From NCBI GenBank assembly GCA_963782055.1, contig CAWAIF010000003.1, forward strand, positions 4,352,001 through 4,416,000: 64,000 bases of DNA, written 5' to 3'. Numbering within the stretch: position 1 is the first letter of the stretch; every line of letters begins with the position of its first letter. Of this stretch, positions 2,512 through 64,000 are shown piece after piece. This DNA is from an uncultured delta proteobacterium (GTDB lineage Bacteria; Myxococcota_A; Polyangia; Polyangiales; Polyangiaceae). The position numbers and the translations under genes were made by a program. The notes under the pieces are model-generated. The model had not been told where the DNA came from, made no database searches, and saw only the letters and a list, made by a program, of their open reading frames with translations.

Positions 2512-3441
2512 GTGAGAGTACCGATGGATCCCGGCCCGCACCACAAAGTCTTCCTGCTGCAGGCGGAGCTGCGCGGCAGCCGCGCCGTCGCCATGGAGCG
2601 CGTCGTGGCGCGCGCGCCAGGCGTGGGTACGTCGCTCGCGTGCGTCGCGCCGGGAGCGCGCGCGGTGGCGGTGCTCGGCGCGGCCCAGCGCTTCAAGGAG
2701 GGGCTGGGCAGGTTGCTCAAGCAGGCGGCGCGGCTGCTCTACGTCTCCCCTGCCCTGTTGATCCTCGCGCCCATCTCCAGGAGCGTCCACCCGTCCGCGC
2801 CGGCGTATCTGCTGGCCGCCTTCGTCATCGCGGTGGTGATCTTCTTCGCGCTCTTCGACCTGTTCCTGGTGGCGGCGATGATCGCGTGGGCGCGGCGCAA
2901 CCGCGGCACGCACGTCTCCATCAAGCGCCCGCAGCTCAGCGACTCCGCGGGGACGCCCACGACCGTGGCGCCCGGCATGATGCACCGGCTGGTCCGGTGC
3001 GTGGGGCGCGCCACGCTGCTCTCCACCGGGTCGGGGCCGATCCTGCGCGCCGCGGCGTGGAGCTCCGGGCCGCCCATGGAGCTCGTCGAGTGCTCCACCT
3101 TCGCCGTCGTTCTGGATGAGGGCACGCCGGTGGTGGTGCAGCACCTCCACACGCCAGAGGTGATCTTCCCGCCCGACCCGGCGGCGGCGCCGGAGCCGTC
3201 CAGCCTCGCGCTGGCCGGGCGCGACGACGTGCCGGAGGCCTCCGTGGTGATCCGCGAGGGGGACCGCGTCGAAGTGCAGGGCGTGGTGGGCGCGTTTTTG
3301 GAGAACACCGCGCACTTCGACGTCGACGGCGTCACCTCCGGCGTCCCGCGGCCGGGCGGCGACGACGACGACCCTTACCGCGGCGGGCCGGGCGTGCCGG
3401 GGCTGCTGCTGACCGACGCCGTGGTGATCCGCAAGGTGTGA
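2512..3441 (+). CDS. Hypothetical membrane protein
   Basis: Two hydrophobic segments; GC-rich third codon positions; start uncertain. Confidence 0.55.
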   Translation: MRVPMDPGPHHKVFLLQAELRGSRAVAMERVVARAPGVGTSLACVAPGARAVAVLGAAQRFKEGLGRLLKQAARLLYVSPALLILAPISRSVHPSAPAYLLAAFVIAVVIFFALFDLFLVAAMIAWARRNRGTHVSIKRPQLSDSAGTPTTVAPGMMHRLVRCVGRATLLSTGSGPILRAAAWSSGPPMELVECSTFAVVLDEGTPVVVQHLHTPEVIFPPDPAAAPEPSSLALAGRDDVPEASVVIREGDRVEVQGVVGAFLENTAHFDVDGVTSGVPRPGGDDDDPYRGGPGVPGLLLTDAVVIRKV

Positions 3442-3538
3442 CGCCACGGCGCCCGTCGCCCCACGAGGAGGTTACACTCGGATACCAGCCTCGTGGCCGT
3501 CCTCGGCTCGCGCGCTGGACACTGGCAGAGGCCCGCTC

Positions 3539-6500
3539 TTGAACACGCATCCTCTCTCCGATCGATTCCAGGTGGAGGCCCCTGCCGGGAGCGGGGGCAT
3601 GGGGAGCATCTACCGCGCGCGCGACGCGCAGACGGGCGAGCTCGTCGCGCTCAAGGTGCTGCACGAGCAGATGGCGATCCACGCCGAGCGCTTCGAGCGA
3701 GAGGCGCTCGCCCTGCGCTCGCTCGACCACCCGGGCATCGTCCGGTACGTCACGCACGGCGCGCTGCCCAGCGGCGCCACGTACGTGGCGATGGAGTGGG
3801 TGGAGGGCGAGACACTCTCGGCGCGGCTGCGGCGCGGCCCGCTCGCCGTCGCCGAGGTCGTGCGCCTGGGGCAACGGCTGGCCGACGCGCTGGGCCACGC
3901 GCACGCGCGCGGCATCGTGCACCGCGACGTGAAGCCCTCCAACGTGCTGCTGGAGGATGGCGACGTCGACCGCCCGCGCCTGGTCGACTTCGGCGTGGCG
4001 TGGGCTCCGTCGTGGCAGACGCTCACGCGCGCCGGCTTCCTGATCGGCACGCCCGGTTACCTCGCCCCGGAGCAGGCGCGCACCGGCGATCCCATCGACG
4101 GTCGCACCGACCTGTTCGCGCTGGGGTGCGTGCTCTACCACGCGCTGGTGCGCCGCCCCGCGTTCCGTGGCGAGAACCTCGCCGCGGTGCTGGCCAAGAC
4201 GCTCTTCGAGGAGCCACCGCCCCCCGCCGAGCTGGTGGCGGAGCTGCCGCGTGCCCTGGACGCGCTCGTCATGAGGCTTCTGGCGAAGGACCGCGACGCG
4301 AGGCCCGCCGACGCGGCGGAGGTCGCCGCGGAGCTGCGCCGCATCGAGGGCCGCCTCGACGCCAGACCCTCCAACATCCCGGCGCCGCCCTCGCTGACTC
4401 GTCGCGAGCGGCGCATCGCCAGCGTCATCGTCGTCGGCGCGCCGGCCGACGACTCACGCACGCTCACGCTCGACACCATCCCCGGGCAGACGCCGCTGCC
4501 CACGCTGGAGCCCATCCGGGCGGCCGCCGCGCCGTTCGGTGGACGCGTGGAGCGCCTCGCCGACGGGACGCTTGCGGTCACGCTGGAGGGGCGGATGGCG
4601 ACCGATCAGGCGGCGCAGGCGGCGCGCTGCGCGCTCGCGCTGCGGAGCGTGCTGCCCGAAGCGCCCATCGCGCTGGCGACCGGACACGCCCTCGCCGGCG
4701 CCCGGGCCCCGGTCGGCGAGGCGATCGACAGGGCGGTGCTCGCGCTCGGCGGCGCCCCCCACGTCATGCCGGCCGTCGCCGTGGACGACGTGACCGCCGG
4801 GTTGCTCGACGCGCGCTTCCAGGTCGAAGCGAGCGCCGGACCCATGGCCCTCCGCGCGGAGCGCGGCACCGACGGCGCGCGCCGGCTGCTCGGCCGCCCC
4901 AGCCCCTTCGTCGGGCGCGAGCGCGAGGTCGGCACGCTGCTCGGCCTCTGGGACGAGTGCGCGTCCGAGCCCGCCGCGCGCGTCGCCCTGGTCACGGGCT
5001 TGCCCGGGATGGGCAAGTCGCGCCTGCGCCACGAGCTGGTGGGCGCGATCCGCAGCCGCGACGCGGCCGCCCGCGTGTGGATGGCGCGCGGCGACCCGAT
5101 GACGCAGGGCTCGCCGCACGGTCTGGTGGCGCAGCTGGTCCGTGCCGAGGCCGGCGTCGCGGAGGGTGAGGGGCTGGAGGCCGCGCGGCGGAAGCTGCGC
5201 GCGCGCGTGCGGCGACACGTGGCGGACGCCGACGCCCCGCGCATCACCGAGTTTCTGGGAGAGCTCGCCGGCGTGCCCTTCCCCGACGAGGAGAGCGTGC
5301 GGCTGCGCGCCGCCCGCCGCGACAAGCAGCTCGTCGCCGACCAGGTGGGCCGCGCCTTCGAGGACCTCCTGCTCGCGGAGGCGGACGCCGGCCCGGTCGT
5401 GATCGTGCTGGAGGATCTGCACTGGGGAGACGCGCCCTCCATCCGGCTCGTCACCAGCGCGCTGCGCGAGTGCCGCGACAAGCCGCTATTCGTGCTGGCG
5501 CTCGCCCGGCCGGAGGTACAGCAGACCTTCCCTTCCCTCTTCGCCAGCCGCCCGCTCACCACCCTCGCCCTCGCCGAGCTGGGCCGCCGCGCCTCCGAGC
5601 GGCTGGTGCGCGCCTCGCTCGGCGCCAACACCAGCGAGACGCTCGTCTCCCGCCTCGTGGCGCAGGCCGACGGCAACGCCTTCTACCTGGAGGAGCTGAT
5701 CCGCGCCGCGGCCGACGGCAAGGGGGACGCCCCGCCCACCGTGCTGGCGATGGTGCAGGCGCGCCTGGAGCGGCTGGACGACGACGCGCGTGCGGCGCTG
5801 CGCGCGGCGAGCGTGTTCGGGGAGTCCTTCTGGCGTGGCGGGGTGGCGGCGCTGATCGGCCTGGGCGCGGAGGCGACGGACCACGCGCTGCGCGTGCTCG
5901 AGCAGGAGGAGCTGGTGGTGGGCCGCGCGCAGTCGCGCGTCGCCGGCGACACCGAGCTCGCCTTTCGCCACGCCTTCGTCCGCGACGCCGCCTACTCGAT
6001 GCTCACACCCGACGATCGAGAGCTCGGCCACCGGCTGGCCGCCGGGTGGCTCGAGGGCGTGGGCGAGCGCGACGCGCGCGTCCTCGCCGACCACTTCGAG
6101 CGAGGCGGCAACCGCGGCCGCGCCGCCGCGCTCTTCGCCGCGGCAGCCGAACGCTCGCTCGCCGCACACGATCACACCGGCGCCCTCGACTGCGCGGAGC
6201 GCGGCCTCTCGTGCGGCGCCGCGGGCGAGGCGCGCGGCGTGCTGCTGGCGAGCGCCGCGGAGGCCCACAACTGGCGGGGGGAGTACGCCCTCGGCATCGC
6301 CCGGGCGCGCGAGGCGATCTCCCTGCTGCCGGAGGCGAGCACCCGCTGGTACCGCGGCATGGCCGAGCTCGGCGTGAGCCTCAGCAGGTCCGGCGAGCGC
6401 GACGCGATCGCCGAGCTGTGCGACGAGCTGATGCGCCCGCCACCCGGCGCCGAGGTGGTCCTGGACGCCATCACGGCGGTCGCGCGCATCGCGCCCAACG

Positions 6501-57577: not shown

Positions 57578-57704
57578 GCCGGTTCGTGCGCGCGCATTTC
57601 TGAAGCGGACGGCGCTGAGCGCGGGGTGTCCGGGGTGTCCGGATGACTGTCCGCGGCCACCCCCCAGGCAGCGCATATCCCGAAGATCGCACCCGTTTCC
57701 TGCT

Positions 57705-57720
57705 GGCATGGGACGCGCAC
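57705..57720 (+). promoter_or_regulatory. Possible sigma54 promoter of the transposase
   Basis: TGGCATG-GGAC-GCGCA, GG-N10-GC, just upstream of the GTG start. Confidence 0.35.
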
Positions 57721-57730
57721 TGGCCAGGGC

Positions 57731-59452
57731 GTGTCGTCCCTCGCCGCGCCGTACGCGCCTCGGCAGCCCACCGAGACGCCGCTCTACCGCCTCGTCCGCG
57801 CCGGCCTGCAGACCTTCCTCCGCTGGGCGCGCGAGAGCTACAGCAAGCCCGTCCCCCGCTACGTCCAGCAGGATCTCCGCGGCTACCTGAAGTGCGGCGT
57901 CTTTCGCCACGGCTTCCTGCGCGCGCATTGCGACGCCTGCGGCCACGATCTGCTCGTCGCGTTCTCCTGCAAGGGCCGCGGCGTCTGCCCGAGCTGCGCG
58001 GGACGCCGCATGGCGAACACCGCCGCCCACCTGGTCGACCGCGTCCTCCCGGACGTCCCCCTCCGCCAGTACGTCCTGTCCCTTCCGTACGAGCTCCGCC
58101 GCCTCGCCGCCTTCGACCCCGTGGTGCTCCGCGCGCTCGCGCGCATCTTCGCGGACGCCATCTTCGCCAGCCACCGCCGCCGCGCCCGCGCAGCGGGGTT
58201 CGATCAGGTCGCCAGCGGCGCGGTCACCTGCGTCCAGCGCTTCGGGGGGAGCCTCAACCTCAACGTCCACTTCCACACCATCGTCATGGACGGCGTCTTC
58301 CTGCGCGAGCCGGACGGCTCCCTCGGCTTCGTGCCCTTGCCGATGCCCACCCGCGCCGAGCTGCAGCAGCTCGTCACCGCCGTCAGCCGTCGCGCCATCG
58401 CGTGGCTCCGCCGCCACGGTCACCTCTCCGAGGATCCGGTGGACCTCGACGTCGAGCCGAGCGCCCTCGACGCCTGCGTGGCTCTCGCGATGCAGCGCCC
58501 GAAGGTGCTGAAGCTCGCGATCGACCCCGGCGGCGACGACGACGACGACGCAGCCGCCCCCGCCATGGCTCACCGCGCGGTGGAGGACACCGGCTTCAAC
58601 CTCCACGCCGGCGTCCGCGTCCGGGACAATCTCGCCCGCGAGCGCCTCTGCCGCTACGCCCTGCGCCCCGCGCTCGCCCTCTCGCGCCTACGCCTCCTGC
58701 GCGACGGCCGCGTCGCCTACCGCGTCAAGCAGCCGCGCGCGGGCAAGGCGAAGCACATGATCCTCACTCCGGTGGAGCTCCTCGCCCGCGTCGCCGCGCT
58801 CGTCCCGCCGCCGCGCTACCCACTTGTCCGCTACCACGGTGTCCTCGCCCCCCGATCGTCGTGGCGGAAGCTCGTGGTCCCCAGGCCGCGTGAGCCGTCC
58901 GCCCCGTCCTGCGGGCCTCCGCGTCCTTCGCGCCCCCTCGTCCCCGCGAAACCCGGGCAGCCCATCGAGAGGCGGGCGCATCGCGACACCACACATGCGG
59001 CAGAGAGGCCCGACCCCGTGCGCCGCGATCCCGCGGGGGCGGCCAGCACCACGAGCGCGCCGCCCGCGGGCCAGCTCGCCCTCCCCCTCCCGGTCCCGCC
59101 ACCCGCGCCCGAGACCGCCGCACCCGCGGCCGCCGCAGACCTCCACGTGCGCCGTCTCGCACCCAACGTCGTCGCCGTGGGCCACTGGGAGCGCCTTCGC
59201 CGCGGCCTTCTCTACGCAGCGACATCCCGCATCGACTGGCCGCGCCTGCTCCGCCGCACCTTCGAGATCGACGTGCTCCAGTGCCCGACCTGCGGGGGCC
59301 GCCTCCGTCCCCTCGCCGTCATCACCGACGACGCCGCCGTGGTCCGCATCCTCCGCGCTCTCGACCTCCCCGCCGAAGCCCCCGCACCTGCCCGCGCCCG
59401 CGATCCGACCGACCTCCTCGACCTCGCCGCAGACGACCCCCCCGCCGCCTGA
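57731..59452 (+). CDS. IS91/ISCR-family rolling-circle (HUH) transposase
   Basis: N-terminal Zn domain CDAC...SCKGRGVCPSC; QRFGGSLNLNVHFH (HUH); RERLCRYALRP; RYHGVLAP; C-terminal IDVLQCPTCGG. Confidence 0.93.
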   Translation: MSSLAAPYAPRQPTETPLYRLVRAGLQTFLRWARESYSKPVPRYVQQDLRGYLKCGVFRHGFLRAHCDACGHDLLVAFSCKGRGVCPSCAGRRMANTAAHLVDRVLPDVPLRQYVLSLPYELRRLAAFDPVVLRALARIFADAIFASHRRRARAAGFDQVASGAVTCVQRFGGSLNLNVHFHTIVMDGVFLREPDGSLGFVPLPMPTRAELQQLVTAVSRRAIAWLRRHGHLSEDPVDLDVEPSALDACVALAMQRPKVLKLAIDPGGDDDDDAAAPAMAHRAVEDTGFNLHAGVRVRDNLARERLCRYALRPALALSRLRLLRDGRVAYRVKQPRAGKAKHMILTPVELLARVAALVPPPRYPLVRYHGVLAPRSSWRKLVVPRPREPSAPSCGPPRPSRPLVPAKPGQPIERRAHRDTTHAAERPDPVRRDPAGAASTTSAPPAGQLALPLPVPPPAPETAAPAAAADLHVRRLAPNVVAVGHWERLRRGLLYAATSRIDWPRLLRRTFEIDVLQCPTCGGRLRPLAVITDDAAVVRILRALDLPAEAPAPARARDPTDLLDLAADDPPAA

Positions 59453-59486
59453 CCACGCGGCAGCGCGCCCGTCCGACTAGCGCGTG

Positions 59487-59588
59487 CTCACCCTGGTCCG
59501 TCCTTCCAGTGACACCGGACGGCCCCACTTCGCATAAGATGGATTCCGTAAACTTTCGCGCCCGACCGCGCTAGGATTTCCTATGCGC
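59487..59588 (+). repeat. ~102-bp oriIS-containing unit, copy 1
   Basis: CTCACCCTGGTCCGTCC...GCGCTAGGATTTCCTATGCGC, 34 bp after the transposase stop. Confidence 0.95.
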
Positions 59589-59901
59589 TACGTTCCGGCC
59601 AGGGCTCATCGAAGGTGAAACCCTCTAGCATGCTGAGTCGGCCAGAACGGATGAAGAGCACGAATCCGACACCGCGGACTAGGCCGCCGACCTCTGCGTA
59701 AACATCGCTGATCTGGAAGTCTCCATCTGCGAGTGGTGCGCCTGCATCCACAGCGAAGTCGCAAAAAAAGCCGACGCCAGTTCGCCTCCGCCCGACAACG
59801 CGAGCCGCATCGGCCTGTAGTCGAAGGGTAGCTAGTGTCGGATCATCGCCGGCGAGTTGCTTGTCGAGCACGGCGCGTTCCAATGTGCTTAAGTTATCCA
59901 T
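59581..59901 (-). CDS. Cargo hypothetical protein (106 aa)
   Basis: AGGAGGT RBS, ATG 59901; TGVGFF...GFVLFI..G.L.MLEGFTFDEPWP; TAG stop supplied by repeat copy 1. Confidence 0.75.
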   Translation of the reverse strand: MDNLSTLERAVLDKQLAGDDPTLATLRLQADAARVVGRRRTGVGFFCDFAVDAGAPLADGDFQISDVYAEVGGLVRGVGFVLFIRSGRLSMLEGFTFDEPWPERSA

Positions 59902-59927
59902 GTCAGGTCCGTACCTCCTAGCTAGGG

Positions 59928-60028
59928 AGCGCATAGGAAATCCTAGCGCGGTCGGGCGCGAAAGTTTACGAAATCCATCTTATGCGAAGTGGGGCCGTCC
60001 GGTGTCACTGGAAGGACGGACCAGGGTG
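59928..60028 (-). repeat. ~102-bp unit, copy 2 (inverted)
   Basis: Reverse complement of copy 1 with one internal mismatch (TACGAAATCC vs TACGGAATCC). Confidence 0.95.
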
Positions 60029-60183
60029 GATTACGCGCAACTTTATTCGGCATTGTATGACAGACTACGAGACGAAGCTCGCTGAGATCCATGGTCGCGT
60101 CGGGACGAATGATGCATATGTGGACTATATTCGCCCGAAGGTGGAGCGCGCGATCGACGAGAAGTACCCTGACCTGGTCGTAG

Positions 60184-60363
60184 CTGAGGTGGACGAGTCA
60201 TGATCCGCGGCGGGCTACGGCCGAACGCCTCAAGCAGCGGCCGTCCCGTCCGGTTCGCTTCTCGGTGCTCATCGGCGGCGAGCTGGTGCGGCTGCGGGCC
60301 GAGTGCGGGCCGGGCGACGAGTCGGAGCCGGTCATTACCATAATGTTGCCGGACGAGGATTGA
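60184..60363 (+). pseudogene. C-terminal fragment of a DUF6573-like mobile-element protein
   Basis: VRFSVLIGGELVRLRAECGPGDESEPVITIMLPDED*; in-frame stop at 60181 and no convincing start. Confidence 0.55.
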
Positions 60364-60485
60364 AACGGAAGGAAAGGTCAAATCATGAAAGTAATAGAAT
60401 TCAACGCGGAAAAGATAGCCATGTTAGCGGTGGCCAACTTATTCGAGCAGGTGGAGTCGCTGCTCGAAAAGGTTGAAACGAGGAA

Positions 60486-60588
60486 CTCACGTAGGTCCGG
60501 GTTTTCCAGTCGGAGCGAACGAACCTTTTCGTATGACGTGTGTTTCGTAAACTTTTCCCGCCCGATCGCGCTAGGATTTCCTATGTGC
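60486..60588 (+). repeat. ~103-bp unit, copy 3 (diverged)
   Basis: CTCAC..GGTCCG..TTCCAGT...CGTAAACTTT..CGCCCGATCGCGCTAGGATTTCCTATGTGC; 3' half near-identical to copy 1. Confidence 0.85.
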
Positions 60589-60886
60589 CTCGCCTGGCGA
60601 GAACATGAAGCTCTCGTCGGCGTTCTGCATGACGTGCCCGTCGTCGGCGTCGAGCTCGCGGACCATGTCGCGACGAAGACGAGCGAGACCGCGCTGCACG
60701 TCGCTGAAGACGCACGGGAGGCCTGGTATGCTCTGGAAGAAGGGTCCGACGATGGACGGAGACCGTCGAGGGTGGTCCATGACCTACGAACGTGTCGCCT
60801 GGTGCTTTCTTCGTCGCTCGGTCAGCGCCGAGGCCATCGGCGGGAGGCTCGCTCCTTCGCCTCCCGAACCGCGACGATCCGCTCGA

Positions 60887-60988
60887 CTCACCCTGGTCCG
60901 TCCTTCCAGTGACACCGGACGGCCCCACTTCGCATAAGATGGATTCCGTAAACTTTCGCGCCCGACCGCGCTAGGATTTCCTATGCGC
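60887..60988 (+). repeat. ~102-bp unit, copy 4 (identical to copy 1)
   Basis: Base-by-base identical to 59487-59588, offset exactly 1400 bp; abuts truncated kdpD. Confidence 0.95.
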
Positions 60989-61356
60989 CGCGAGCCGGGC
61001 GCGTTGGTGTGCGCGAGCTCGTCGACGAGGATGAGGGACGGCTTTCGTTCGAGCGCCTTGTCGAGGTCGAACTCCTCGACGGCGACGCCTCGGTGCTGCT
61101 CCTTGCGCCTCGGGAGCAGCTCGAGGCCGATGACGAGCCCCGCGGTGTCGTAGCGGCCGTGCGTCTCGACGATGCCGATGACTACGTCGCGGCCCCCGTC
61201 CTTCTCGAGGCGCGCCGCCTCGAGCATCGCGTACGTCTTGCCGACGCCGGGCGCCGCGCCGAAGAAGATGGTCAGCTTGCCGCGATGCTCGCGCTTCTCC
61301 TCCTCGGTGACCTGCCGGAGGAGCTCGTCGGGGTCGCGGCGCGCGCCGAGGGCCAT
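60988..61356 (-). pseudogene. kdpD: KdpD sensor kinase, N-terminal 123 codons only
   Basis: GKLTIFFGAAPGVGKTYAML, VETHGR, LVDELAHTNAPGSR, then repeat copy 4. Confidence 0.9.
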
Positions 61357-61375: not shown

Positions 61376-63529
61376 TCAGACGAGATGGAGCGCGACGAGG
61401 ATGACGTCGATCAGCTTGATGCCCACGAACGGAACGACGACGCCGCCGAGGCCGTAAATCAGGAGGTTGCGGCGGAGCAGGGCCGCCGCGCCGAGCGCTC
61501 GGTACCGAACGCCCCGGAGGGCGAGCGGGATGAGAGCGATGATGACGAGGGCGTTGAAGATCACCGCGGAGAGGATCGCGCTCTTGGCGGTCTCGAGGTG
61601 CATGATGTTGAGCGCGCCGAGCGCCGGGTACGTGCCGAGGAAGACCGCCGGGATGATCGCGAAGTACTTGGCGACGTCGTTGGAGAGGCTGAAGGTCGTC
61701 AGCGCGCCCCTCGTGATGAGCAGCTGCTTGCCGATCTCGACGATCTCGATGAGCTTCGTGGGGTTCGAGTCGAGGTCGACCATGTTGCCGGCCTCCTTCG
61801 CGGCCTGCGTGCCGGAGTTCATCGCGACGGCCACGTCGGCCTGGGCGAGCGCCGGCGCGTCGTTCGTGCCGTCGCCGGTCATGGCGACGAGGCGCCCACC
61901 GGCCTGGTTCTCGCGGATGAGCTTGAGCTTGGTCTCGGGCGTGGCCTGCGCCAGGAAGTCGTCGACGCCGGCCTCGGCGGCGATCGCCGCCGCGGTCATC
62001 GGGTTGTCGCCGGTGATCATGATCGTCTTGATGCCCATGCGGCGGAGCTCGGAGAAGCGCTCCTTGATGCCACCTTTGACGATGTCCTTGAGCTCGATGA
62101 CGCCGAGCACCCTCTCGCGCTCGGCGACCACCAGCGGCGTCGCGCCGCGCTTGGCGATCGTGTCGACGGCGCGCTGCACGTCGCCCGGGAACGTGCCGCC
62201 CTTGGCGCGAACGTAGGCCTCGATCGCATCGGCGGCGCCTTTTCGGATCTCGCGATCCTTGGTGTCGACGCCGCTCATCCGGGTCTGCGCGCTGAAGGGA
62301 ACGAAGGTCGCGTCGAGGTCGGCCATCGCGCGCTCGCGCACGCCGAATTTCTCCTTCGCGAGGATGGTGATGCTCCGGCCCTCCGGGGTCTCGTCCGCGA
62401 TGGACGCGAGCTGGGCCGCCTCGGCGAGCGCCTCGGGCTTCACGCCCGGCGCGGGCACGAAGGACGACGCCTGGCGGTTGCCGAGCGTGATCGTCCCGGT
62501 CTTGTCGAGCAGGAGCACGTCGACGTCGCCCGCCGCCTCGACGGCCCGCCCCGAGGTGGCGATGACGTTGGCCTGGACCATGCGGTCCATTCCCGCGATG
62601 CCGATCGCGGAGAGCAGCGCGCCGATGGTCGTGGGGATGAGGCATACGAGCAGCGCGACGAGCGCGGTGATGCTGATCGGCTCCCCCTTTCCGGCCGCGT
62701 GCACGCTGAAGATGGAGAACGGCAGGAGCGTGACGCAGACGAAGAGGAAGATGATCGTGAGCGCGGCGAGGAGGATGTCGAGGGCGATCTCGTTGGGAGT
62801 CTTCTGGCGCTTGGCGCCCTCGACCATCGCGATCATGCGATCGAGGAAGGCCTCTCCGGGGTTGGCGCTCACGCGCACGATGATCCAGTCGGACAGGACG
62901 CGCGTCCCGCCGGTGACCGCGCTGCGATCGCCGCCGCTCTCGCGGATGACCGGCGCGCTCTCACCGGTGATCGCGCTCTCGTCGACCGAGGCGACGCCAA
63001 GGACGATCTCTCCGTCGACCGGGATGAAATCGCCGGTCTCGACGAGGACGACGTCGCCCTTGCGGAGCGCCGTCGACGCGACGCGCGTCACGGCGGCGTC
63101 GCGCTCCGGCCGCGCGAGCTGCTTGGCCTGGATGTCGCGGCGAGACTTGCGGAGCGCGTCGGCCTGCGCCTTGCCGCGCCCCTCGGCCATCGCCTCGGCG
63201 AAGTTGGCGAAGAGCACGGTGAACCAGAGCCAGGCGGAGATGGCGCCGATGAAACCGGGCGACGCCTCGCCGTGCCCCCCGAGCGCGTGGAAGAAGAGCA
63301 GCGTCGTCAGCAGGCTGCCGACCTCCACAACGAACATCACCGGGTTCTTGATCTGATGGCGCGGGTCGAGCTTCGCGAAGCTGGCGCCGATCGCGCCCTT
63401 GACGATCGCGGCCTCGAAGAGCGGGCGCGCGACGGCGCCTTTGTCGCCTTCGCCGGCGGCGCGATCGCGCGCGGGCGCCGCCGACGGCGCGCCGGGGGCG
63501 ACAGGTGCGGTGGGGTTCTCGTGTTTCAT
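61376..63529 (-). CDS. kdpB: Potassium-transporting P-type ATPase subunit B
   Basis: [45 protein letters not shown]. Confidence 0.97.
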
Positions 63530-64000
63530 CGGAGTGCGTCCAGAGCGAGGTTCAGTTCCAGCACGTTGACGATCCGGTCGGGGGTGAGCGGACCGCCGGG
63601 AGAGACAGTCTGTGCGTCGATGAGCGACTCGACGCGTGCGACCGGCAAGCCGCGGGCGTGGGCGACTCGCTCGGCCTGGTAGCGCGCGGCCTCGGCGCTG
63701 ATGTGGGGATCGAGGCCGCTGCCGGACGCGGCGACGAGATCGGCCGGGATGGGCTCGTCGGCGGTGGCCGCGTACGTCCCGACGAGCTTGGTCGCGCGGT
63801 CGGTGAGGTCCGAGCTCGTCGGCGACTTGTTGCTGCCGCCGGCGGCCGAGGCGTTGTAGTCGACCGCAGAGGGCCGCGGCCAGAAGTACTTCGGGCTCTC
63901 GAACTTCTGAGCGATGAGCCGGCTGCCCACGACCGCACCGTTCGGCCCGCGCAGGAGCGAGCCCTCGGCGCCGTCGTGGTCGACGACCTGGGCGAACGCG
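63526..64000 (-). CDS. kdpC: Potassium-transporting ATPase subunit C (5' end off window)
   Basis: [39 protein letters not shown]. Confidence 0.93.

Follow-up and report, generated by a model that had tools for sequence, protein, structure and literature searches.

Introduction

Insertion sequences (ISs) of the IS91/ISCR type are held responsible for moving resistance and virulence genes, and their pick-up of DNA has been argued from a few Proteobacteria elements. Herein, a stretch of 64,000 nucleotides from an uncultured delta proteobacterium (the window; positions 4,352,001 to 4,416,000 of contig CAWAIF010000003.1, assembly GCA_963782055.1) was analyzed. An insertion sequence within it, here called ISY, carries the transposase gene tnpA and ends in a 100-bp repeat, here called the unit, further copies of which follow downstream. 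A first-pass annotation of this DNA had described a transposase and an array of four oriIS units separating captured DNA. The four units are in fact the head of a 76-kb array with 27 unit matches, and one-sided arrays of this kind recur elsewhere in the genome and in other genomes. With moderate confidence, the locus is read as the head of a polar array made by rolling-circle mini-derivatives of ISY that re-insert at resident ori junctions.

Transposition in the IS91 family begins at oriIS, proceeds through the element, and finishes at terIS, according to PMC13181058. The same paper reports that termination fails in 1-14% of events and that adjacent DNA is then carried along. One-ended transposition and single-stranded circles are known behavior of the family, and the circle with an ori-ter junction is the inserting form. 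No target duplication is made. The terIS has one G+C-rich subterminal palindrome upstream of tnpA, and the oriIS has one or two palindromes downstream of it. Transposition is also reported for a mini-IS91 with 89 bp from terIS and 82 bp from oriIS (PMC13181058). For IS801, PMC3189936 (Bardaji et al. 2011) reports early termination, by which right-end fragments of 229, 360, and 679 nt made up 26% of insertions. For ISCR28, a 'sandwich' of two oriIS around a captured gene is reported second hand in PMC12772301.

Results

Polar arrays in this genome

The genome of 7.58 Mb consists of 3 contigs. C3 denotes the contig of the window (C3:4352001-4416000) and C2 denotes another contig. The unit was compared with the whole genome by sensitive blastn, a check that the first-pass annotation had proposed, and 67 matches were found (41 by a less sensitive genome search). 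Forty-nine of them lie in three arrays, A, B, and C (Table 1), which make up 2.4% of the genome; about 1.6 matches would be expected there under an even spread. The other 18 lie outside the arrays. Each array begins at one ISY copy, and 44 of the 49 array matches have the orientation of the heading copy. Upstream of the ISY copies, no unit match was found for 0.7-1.7 Mb. The first-pass annotation had named a single unit with a one-off pile-up as the case that would speak against it; the other two transposase copies of the genome also head arrays.

The identity to unit 1 drops with distance from ISY in two arrays (Spearman -0.61, n=27, and -0.79, n=17). One pair of units stands head to tail with zero intervening bases (C3:4433280-4433479).

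Table 1 Features of the locus in window coordinates, and the three arrays in contig coordinates.
Feature	Position	Strand	Basis or remark
ISY, whole insertion sequence, 1,969 bp (left end, tnpA, right-end unit)	57624-59592	+	Homology limits between copies
ISY left end, G+C-rich imperfect palindrome, terIS-like by position	57624-57670	+	First 19 bases common to copies A and B; related end in copy C
tnpA, intact open reading frame (ORF), 573 aa	57731-59452	+	Open reading frame; Pfam Y2_Tnp and Zn_Tnp_IS91
Unit 1, right-end module of ISY	59487-59588	+	Element proper 59489-59588
Spacer 1, 340 bp, truncated copy of Rhs-linked ORF	59589-59928	-	100% identity to C2:3479-3818
Unit 2, inverted	59929-60028	-	99% identity to unit 1
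Spacer 2, 457 bp	60029-60485	n/a	GC about 0.52-0.65; single copy in genome
Unit 3, diverged variant mini-element	60486-60588	+	R half with terminus CCTATGTGC; diverged L half
Spacer 3, 298 bp	60589-60886	n/a	98.3% identity to C3:6832600-6832888
Unit 4	60887-60988	+	100% identity to unit 1
kdpD 5' fragment	60989-61356	-	KdpD positions 1-101 of 210 only (Pfam); cut exactly at R end of unit 4
Array A	C3:4411487-4487123	22 plus	27 unit matches
Array B	C3:5265264 down to 5176837	all minus	17 unit matches
Array C	C3:2741241 down to 2725754	all minus	5 unit matches

Polar arrays in related genomes

The transposase is a member of a large environmental family, for which 2,259 proteins were found at E <= 1e-20 among 8,000 candidates scored. 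Species-representative genomes were scanned with a 20-member TnpA alignment, and 80 loci were kept, most of which carry titles of Myxococcota, Polyangiales, or 'delta proteobacterium' metagenome-assembled genomes. Sixteen loci were dropped because the match ended short of residue 530, and 10 because less than 260 bp followed the stop codon. Each of the 54 usable loci was then searched with the 220 bp following its own tnpA stop codon.

Downstream of tnpA, 25 extra tail copies (21 in the same orientation and 4 in the opposite one) were found in 205 kb, at 14 of the 30 loci with at least 1.5 kb of downstream DNA. Upstream, only 2 were found in 309 kb, at 2 of the 38 loci with at least 1.5 kb. 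The multi-unit arrays at homologous loci that the first-pass annotation had asked about do exist, and polar arrays are characteristic of this branch of the IS91 family.

The repeated tail piece of the other genomes is 86-123 bp long. Within any one genome its left border is constant, and its end in several of the genomes is a motif resembling CTACTCGC. The unit sequence varies between genomes in step with the ISY-type tail. In one genome, all 8 copies of a 16.6-kb array downstream of tnpA have its orientation, and in another, four copies do likewise. With one partial exception, no second transposase gene was found beside the tail copies of other genomes. No integrase or tyrosine recombinase was found among 55 ORFs downstream of the transposase at 8 loci with downstream tail copies, which agrees with the first-pass view that no tyrosine recombinase is used. 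What lies between the copies in these genomes is accessory DNA of an ordinary kind, without a shared theme.

In 120 genomes of the host's family, no full unit was found, and partial matches of 29-45 nt were present in 5 of them. Two exact unit patterns gave 0 matches in metagenome contigs. Among sequencing runs, none of the source was found, and two metagenome runs contained small shares; placed at 85% likeness, they gave only short contigs. In one run from soil (X1), contigs cover 60337-60503 and 60517-60718 without mismatch, the second of which bridges the junction of unit 3 and spacer 3. X1 may be the sample of origin, so that these contigs are weak support for the assembly. In the other run (X2), two contigs carry a unit-like stretch with different flanks.

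Two further approaches were tried and set aside. Synteny was considered as a way to find the site before interruption, for which the relatives are too distant. Conserved genes in genomes of the same genus show about 70-83% identity (about 80% in kdpB), and the genes of the left flank are scattered there. Replication direction was considered as the source of the polarity. With dnaA on C2 and the cumulative GC skew of C3 peaking near 3.6 Mb, the arrays at 4.41 and 2.74 Mb point origin-ward, and the array at 5.27 Mb points terminus-ward together with a foreign locus (L064, complete genome, dnaA at 2.83 Mb). The count is 2 versus 2.

The transposase and ISY

The tnpA product matched Y2_Tnp (PF04986, E 5.4e-28) and Zn_Tnp_IS91 (PF14319, E 1.8e-16), both over the curated Pfam cut-offs. 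In an alignment with 20 relatives, residues H180 and H182 within VHFH are invariant, and Y363 and Y368 are nearly invariant. We take these residues to be the catalytic HUH motif and the two tyrosines. As judged from these domains and residues, tnpA is an IS91-family HUH (Y2) transposase gene, as the first-pass annotation had it. The protein of about 570 aa contains a long insert rich in proline and alanine, and no helicase domain was found in it by Pfam.

Three copies of the transposase gene were found in the genome by tblastn. Copy A is in the window; copy B is full length (C3:5265302-5267020, minus strand, 98.6%); copy C is broken (C3:2741281-2742743, minus strand), and the corresponding ISY copy, also broken, spans C3:2742741-2741136. 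The borders of ISY were set by copies A (C3:4409624-4411592) and B (C3:5267127-5265159), which are alike there and nowhere beyond, with 97.6% identity over 1,972 columns. About 90 bp before the start codon strongly differ between these two copies (window 57643-57730 and C3:5267108-5267021), and the rest is nearly identical.

The layout of the ends was compared with that of IS91. One palindrome lies at 57624-57670, and two small palindromes of the right half of the unit lie at the far right; they fold no better than shuffled sequences. The left end forms a stem with z -0.67 against shuffles, and by its position it may act as a terminator. The left end begins with GGGTGTCC and the left border of the unit with CACCCTGG, and the two are unlike.

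The unit and the 2.6-kb element ISX

Unit 1 has a hairpin-bearing left half (L) followed by a right half (R) with the terminus CCTATGCGC. Twenty-one of the genomic matches are full-length units. All of them begin with CACCCTGG, with a constant left border, and all 21 retain the right end, which reads CCTATGCGC or a close variant of it. The identity of 99-100% over a 100-bp repeat seen in the window is far beyond chance.

Many of the remaining matches are halves a few kb apart, covering unit positions 3-52 (L) and 42-102 (R). These halves are the two ends of a 2.6-kb element, here called ISX (e.g., C3:5977204-5979818). At least five full-length copies with unique flanks were found, besides several damaged ones, and several copies lie within arrays. 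Because L and R are the ends of ISX copies with unique flanks, they are the termini of something mobile. ISX carries a gene for a Phage_integrase-family protein (E 6.5e-40) and a second Y2_Tnp/Zn_Tnp_IS91 transposase gene of 386 aa.

The unit is short (100 bp) and non-coding, has the termini of the autonomous element ISX of the same genome, and forms the tail of ISY. From its sequence it looks like L plus R without anything between, that is, a complete non-autonomous mini-element and a MITE (miniature inverted-repeat transposable element) in the wide sense. The classical MITE features are absent, since the ends are unlike and there is no target duplication; the type is that of mini-IS91 instead. 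The first-pass annotation had taken the units for oriIS. The right-end module stands; the bare oriIS does not, the halves being both termini of the 2.6-kb element. By its position at the far right end, downstream of tnpA, R would be the oriIS, and L would behave as the left, terminator-like terminus.

In folding, L forms a stem of 6 bp, and R forms two small palindromes, the outer of which is an 8-bp stem at the very end. An Rfam search gave two chance-level matches only (E 0.59 and 0.74). In the flanks of 26 elements, no target duplication of at least 3 bp was found (0/26). A pyrimidine stands at position -1 in 26/26 and at +1 in 24/26. The right flanks of the three ISY copies are TACG, TACG, and TCCG.

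Unit 3 is of a different kind from units 1, 2, and 4. Its match to unit 1 is confined to the last 46 bases (89%). Positions 60486-60534 are 96% identical to C3:6197351-6197399, and positions 60528-60588 are 93% identical to C3:6199914-6199974. These two places are the ends of a variant copy of the 2.6-kb ISX.

A motif of about 26 nt with a perfect 6-bp G+C palindrome (...GCCGCTGCGCGGCAGCG...) lies about 50 nt inside the R end of ISX, and a similar motif, inverted, lies about 135 nt inside the L end. In other genomes, a GCCGCTGCGCGGCAGCG-type motif was observed upstream of the integrase gene at 17 of 29 loci of relatives of the ISX transposase. It may be the ISX family's own terminal repeat or terIS.

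Spacers and flanks of the units

The first-pass annotation had reported an intact HUH transposase ORF followed by four ~102-bp units with spacers of about 340, 460, and 300 bp, unrelated to each other, the first two of them visibly richer in AT. The ORF search, Pfam, and the repeat comparison bear this out. The positions of units 1, 3, and 4 were confirmed, and the start of unit 2 was corrected by 1 base, from 59928 to 59929. The spacers measure 340, 457, and 298 bp and have no mutual similarity. In 200-bp windows, GC is 0.52-0.66 at 59500-60899, 0.70-0.81 in tnpA, and 0.65-0.71 in the kdp genes to the right. The lower GC is clearest for spacers 1 and 2.

The claim that the units separate captured DNA was borne out for two of the three spacers, which are copies of DNA found elsewhere with borders exactly at unit ends. 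Spacer 1 is bordered exactly by the R ends of units 1 and 2. Its source at C2 comprises most of a 129-aa ORF (3405-3791, minus strand), directly after a gene for a 1,380-aa RHS/YD-repeat (teneurin-like) protein. In the window, the ribosome-binding site and the start of this ORF are kept, the 3' end is missing, and the R end of unit 2 lies 27 nt before the start codon. No Pfam family was found for the 129-aa ORF, which by position is immunity-like. Spacer 3 runs from the R end of unit 3 to the L end of unit 4, and its source locus is 2.4 Mb away. For spacer 2, blastn against the genome found no other copy (self only), and its ORFs have no Pfam family. No recognizable genes were found in spacers 2 and 3.

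The source locus of spacer 1, with the Rhs gene and the 129-aa ORF, spans C2:3405-7954. Beyond it lies an IS66 element (C2:128-2881). A fragment of a diverged ISY-like transposase lies at C2:2935-3123, with 54% identity to residues 50-112.

Twenty-seven elements were compared with the rest of the genome. For several of them, flank homology to a unit-free place begins or ends exactly at the element end. Because the left and right flanks are contiguous nowhere else, every unit joins stretches of DNA that are unrelated. Break points of mosaic kind are present at a distance from units as well, as where C3:4433480-4435278 includes pieces of C3:6.95-6.96 Mb.

To the right of unit 4, the remainder of the window kdpD was found nowhere in the genome; the sole other KdpD-domain match is a separate intact gene at C3:2350048. 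At 60989, metagenome contigs of relatives continue with the KdpD sequence that would be expected there. A second kdp operon (KdpA, KdpB) and a BBP2-type porin gene lie between unit 4 and the next unit (window 61376-64000, C3:4416091-4419353). This operon has only 64-81% DNA identity to the kdp operon at C3:2.345-2.352 Mb, whose kdpD is intact.

Contents of the arrays

The arrays contain IS4/IS5-like, IS256-like, and IS66 elements, a group II intron, truncated genes, and many ORFs without a family. Array A also contains the apparently native kdp operon. The group II intron reverse transcriptase/maturase gene (RVT_1, GIIM) of array A lies at C3:4455610-4458000, and a further copy fragment lies at C3:2280786. 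At C3:4450560-4452183, a unit is split at about position 50 by a 1,520-bp IS, with unit positions 42-50 repeated on either side, as if the IS had inserted in the usual way and duplicated about 9 bp. The same IS is also present at C3:6166611 and 6201801. At C3:4441377-4447062, an ISX copy is interrupted by a 3,058-bp IS66-family element.

In array B, a gene of about 3 kb without a known family is present in three tandem copies (C3:5244700-5253600). Fragments of this gene family adjoin unit ends in array A, at C3:4420849, 4437719, and 4439438. In the first spacer of array C (C3:2738910-2741119), a 547-aa ORF with RHS repeat and terminal Colicin-DNase/WHH nuclease domains is present, plus a 187-aa ORF. 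The two look like an orphan toxin tip with its immunity gene.

A module of unit, 4-kb segment, and ISX was noticed in two arrays and considered as a duplicated compound transposon. This was dropped; only the unit and the segment are common to both, and 3.1 kb lie between the segment and ISX in the second array.

Discussion

Proposed mechanism

The reading favored here is that the arrays grow by re-insertion of ISY mini-derivatives. Transposition would start at R and usually stop about 100 nt later at L, yielding a 100-nt mini-element, the unit. Units and longer unit-ended pieces would be re-inserted preferentially at the junction of a resident R end and its flank, which would be the site that the transposase itself binds and cuts to begin transposition. 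An incoming ter-ori strand joined at a resident junction would be placed directly downstream and in the same orientation. If the enzyme prefers the ori beside its own gene, older copies would be pushed outward and the newest would stand next to tnpA.

With insertion at a resident R junction, one would expect arrays on one side only, a common orientation, head-to-tail pairs such as the one found, and the observed identity gradient. If the units had instead spread from ISY by stepping stones, the gradient should be reversed. Direct units may serve as alternative start and stop sites, by which the DNA between them could move. They may also be points of breakage, recombination, and deletion, by which inserted DNA would be trimmed to fragments. 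In the window, ISY would then be followed by a fragment of the Rhs-linked ORF, a unit in inverted orientation, a piece of foreign DNA of 457 bp, a variant unit, 298 bp copied from a distant locus, and unit 4 truncating kdpD.

Several observations weigh against this mechanism. Among the array matches, 5/49 are inverted, unit 2 among them. The identity gradient confounds age with differences between sub-families. Beyond unit 1, the three ISY copies share no sequence, so the arrays are not seen moving with ISY. The similarity between L and the ISY left end is not significant (931/2000 shuffles score as well). The fold energies of the unit as DNA do not improve on those of shuffled sequences, with z values from -1.4 to +1.5. 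In the right flanks of the 26 elements, no conserved target tetranucleotide was found beside R. Both ISX genes are on the strand opposite to the unit orientation and run from R to L, the reverse of the canonical ter-tnpA-ori order; the ori/ter assignment could be reversed for the ISX transposase. No empty site was found for any unit, the left and right flanks of the 27 elements being joined nowhere in the genome. No unit was found beside the source loci of spacers 1 and 3 or beside further source copies of unit flanks. The 14 foreign loci with downstream copies come from 13 assemblies and are not fully independent. The anatomy of the arrays and their recurrence are firmly established, whereas the mechanism itself is read from sequence, with precedents in IS801 and mini-IS91.

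Because the sources are unit-free, the classical one-ended capture from a neighboring unit does not explain spacers 1 and 3. They may instead derive from unit-carrying donors since lost, from larger duplications trimmed by deletions between units, or from repair that joined foreign DNA to nicks made by the enzyme.

Alternative explanations

The same polarity, common orientation, and identity gradient peaking beside the transposase would also be expected of a capture platform, in which the transposase's own ori junction docks DNA circles bounded by ter and ori, and selection keeps genes such as immunity and toxin-tip modules. Some of the cargo fits. Spacer 1 copies the ORF that follows an RHS toxin gene, and the RHS/Colicin-DNase/WHH protein and 187-aa ORF of array C stand between two units. 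At one foreign locus (L102), a three-gene oxidoreductase cluster of aldo/keto reductase, short-chain dehydrogenase, and 6-phosphogluconate-dehydrogenase-like genes lies between two direct units. Two unit R ends lie shortly before start codons, that of unit 2, where the ribosome-binding site is kept, and that of a unit at C3:4420849, 2 nt before the start of a 639-aa member of the 3-kb gene family.

Much of the cargo does not fit a capture platform. The spacer 1 ORF lacks its 3' end, spacers 2 and 3 lack recognizable genes, the arrays are crowded with other ISs and truncated genes, and foreign cargo shows no common theme. A promoter scan of 59400-61100 found 0 sigma-70-like sites, and thus none in the units there. 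No cassette bounded on both sides by unit ends was observed to recur in a second array in a changed order. Selection-driven capture is accordingly considered unlikely. The full form of the idea is that ter/ori circles dock at their own oriIS, newest first, as a recombinase-free counterpart of the integron, conserved in Myxococcota-type genomes, which collects and re-mobilizes whole genes, here Rhs-linked toxin-tip and immunity-like modules. That form is doubtful. The first-pass annotation had proposed an integron-like system that accumulates or shuffles DNA; a selected capture function lacks demonstration, and polar stacking is favored instead.

A reading without any directional mechanism was also weighed. 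Mini-elements would insert at random in an IS-rich plasticity zone, homologous recombination or end-joining at the 100-bp repeats would scramble the flanks, and the polarity would be a by-product. The other ISs and the group II intron within the arrays, the break points away from units, and the joining of non-contiguous DNA at every unit are all consistent with it. For IS801, most genomic fragments were judged to be products of reorganization by the authors of PMC3189936. Random insertion fails, however, to give 25 downstream versus 2 upstream copies over 54 loci, to put all three ISY copies at array starts, to give 44/49 matches in one orientation, and to give the identity gradient in two arrays. 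It is therefore held to be quite improbable.

It is very unlikely that the tyrosine recombinase of ISX builds the arrays by recombining units as att-like sites. The Phage_integrase gene does lie beside a Y2 transposase gene in an element bounded by unit halves, and several ISX copies lie within arrays. However, the arrays begin at ISY and not at ISX, the 55 ORFs at the 8 foreign loci include no integrase, and the unit sequence changes between genomes together with the ISY-type tail. An assembly chimera joined via the nearly identical 100-bp repeats is a negligible prospect, as the 3-contig genome resolves many 1.4-2.6-kb repeats at >99% identity, the same architecture is present twice more in the genome and in 13 other assemblies, and the X1 contigs, although X1 may be the source sample, cross the junction of unit 3 and spacer 3 without mismatch.

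Comparison with described systems

ISY shares with IS91, IS801, and IS1294 a Y2 HUH transposase with an N-terminal zinc-binding domain, and the lack of a target duplication. By its transposase ISY is assigned to the IS91 family, and the arrangement of its two unlike ends, the putatively ori-like one downstream of tnpA, would fit this. A target tetranucleotide was the one defining feature tested that was not found; ISY and its units have no clear one, whereas the studied IS91 members have CTTG, GTTC, or GTCC beside oriIS. ISY differs further by a second terminus-like hairpin only about 100 bp from its right end, and by dozens of 100-bp solo copies in polar arrays downstream of tnpA.

The nearest parallels to the unit are the miniature fragments of IS801 and the experimental mini-IS91. 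The IS801 fragments are likewise solo right-end pieces produced by early termination, with the transposase supplied in trans. As described for IS801, they are 229, 360, or 679 nt long, have no hairpin at the tetranucleotide with which they begin, and occur in small numbers at scattered places. The unit, in contrast, has one constant form of 100 bp whose left border bears a hairpin, and it is present in 21 full copies and in arrays linked to tnpA. An IS801-type fragment begins at a tetranucleotide like the IS's own left end, whereas the left border of the unit, CACCCTGG, is unlike the ISY left end, GGGTGTCC. ISCR elements, ISCR28 included, have an IS91-like transposase and in-line extra oriIS copies that bracket captured DNA. 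For ISCR, the described route of capture is on the upstream side, with transposition reading on where a terIS is missing. The units are many, each has both halves, and they lie on the downstream side, over tens of kb, in non-clinical Myxococcota-type genomes.

More distant systems were compared by outcome. An integron has an IntI tyrosine recombinase, an attI site, and a cassette promoter at its head, with attC sites bounding mostly single promoterless genes. The array is alike in having a platform gene at one end, repeated sites in the same orientation with variable DNA between them, and the copies closest to the reference next to the platform. It differs in having no IntI, attI, or attC; its head is an HUH transposase gene, its sites are IS ends, and its cargo consists of fragments, multi-gene stretches on both strands, and ISs, with no promoter-like site found. 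IS26 is a DDE element of about 0.8 kb with its own transposase in every copy, and forms translocatable units and pseudo-compound transposons. Like the array, it has element copies in direct orientation that alternate with segments of DNA, and it inserts beside a copy already present, as is proposed for the units. The array differs in repeating a non-coding element of 100 bp and in having an HUH nuclease as its enzyme. The array thus resembles an integron or an IS26 array in outcome, without their defining parts. Helitrons are eukaryotic, have Rep fused to a helicase, several termini, and captured gene fragments. They are also a rolling-circle family whose ends multiply and between whose ends gene fragments accumulate; their ends and targets differ, and no helicase domain is present here.

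The first-pass annotation had not recognized the architecture as a described one. Related parts are in print, namely the IS801 fragments, mini-IS91, and the ISCR28 'sandwich'. In the literature searched, which covered few subscription journals, no account was found of ter-ori mini-elements that form polar arrays behind an IS91-family transposase. The component parts are known, and the one-sided arrays appear to be undescribed.

Significance

In a large environmental branch of the IS91 family, the right end has turned into an independent element of 100 bp, and the multiplication of this element is confined to one side of tnpA. If the units do insert at resident ori junctions, this would be a second route of DNA capture for the family, on the downstream side and with exact borders. 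It would also be a way to build long arrays, and one gene with a 100-bp substrate would make a simple assay system. If they do not, the locus remains a clear illustration from nature of a chromosome region made into a patchwork by the mini-derivatives of an insertion sequence.

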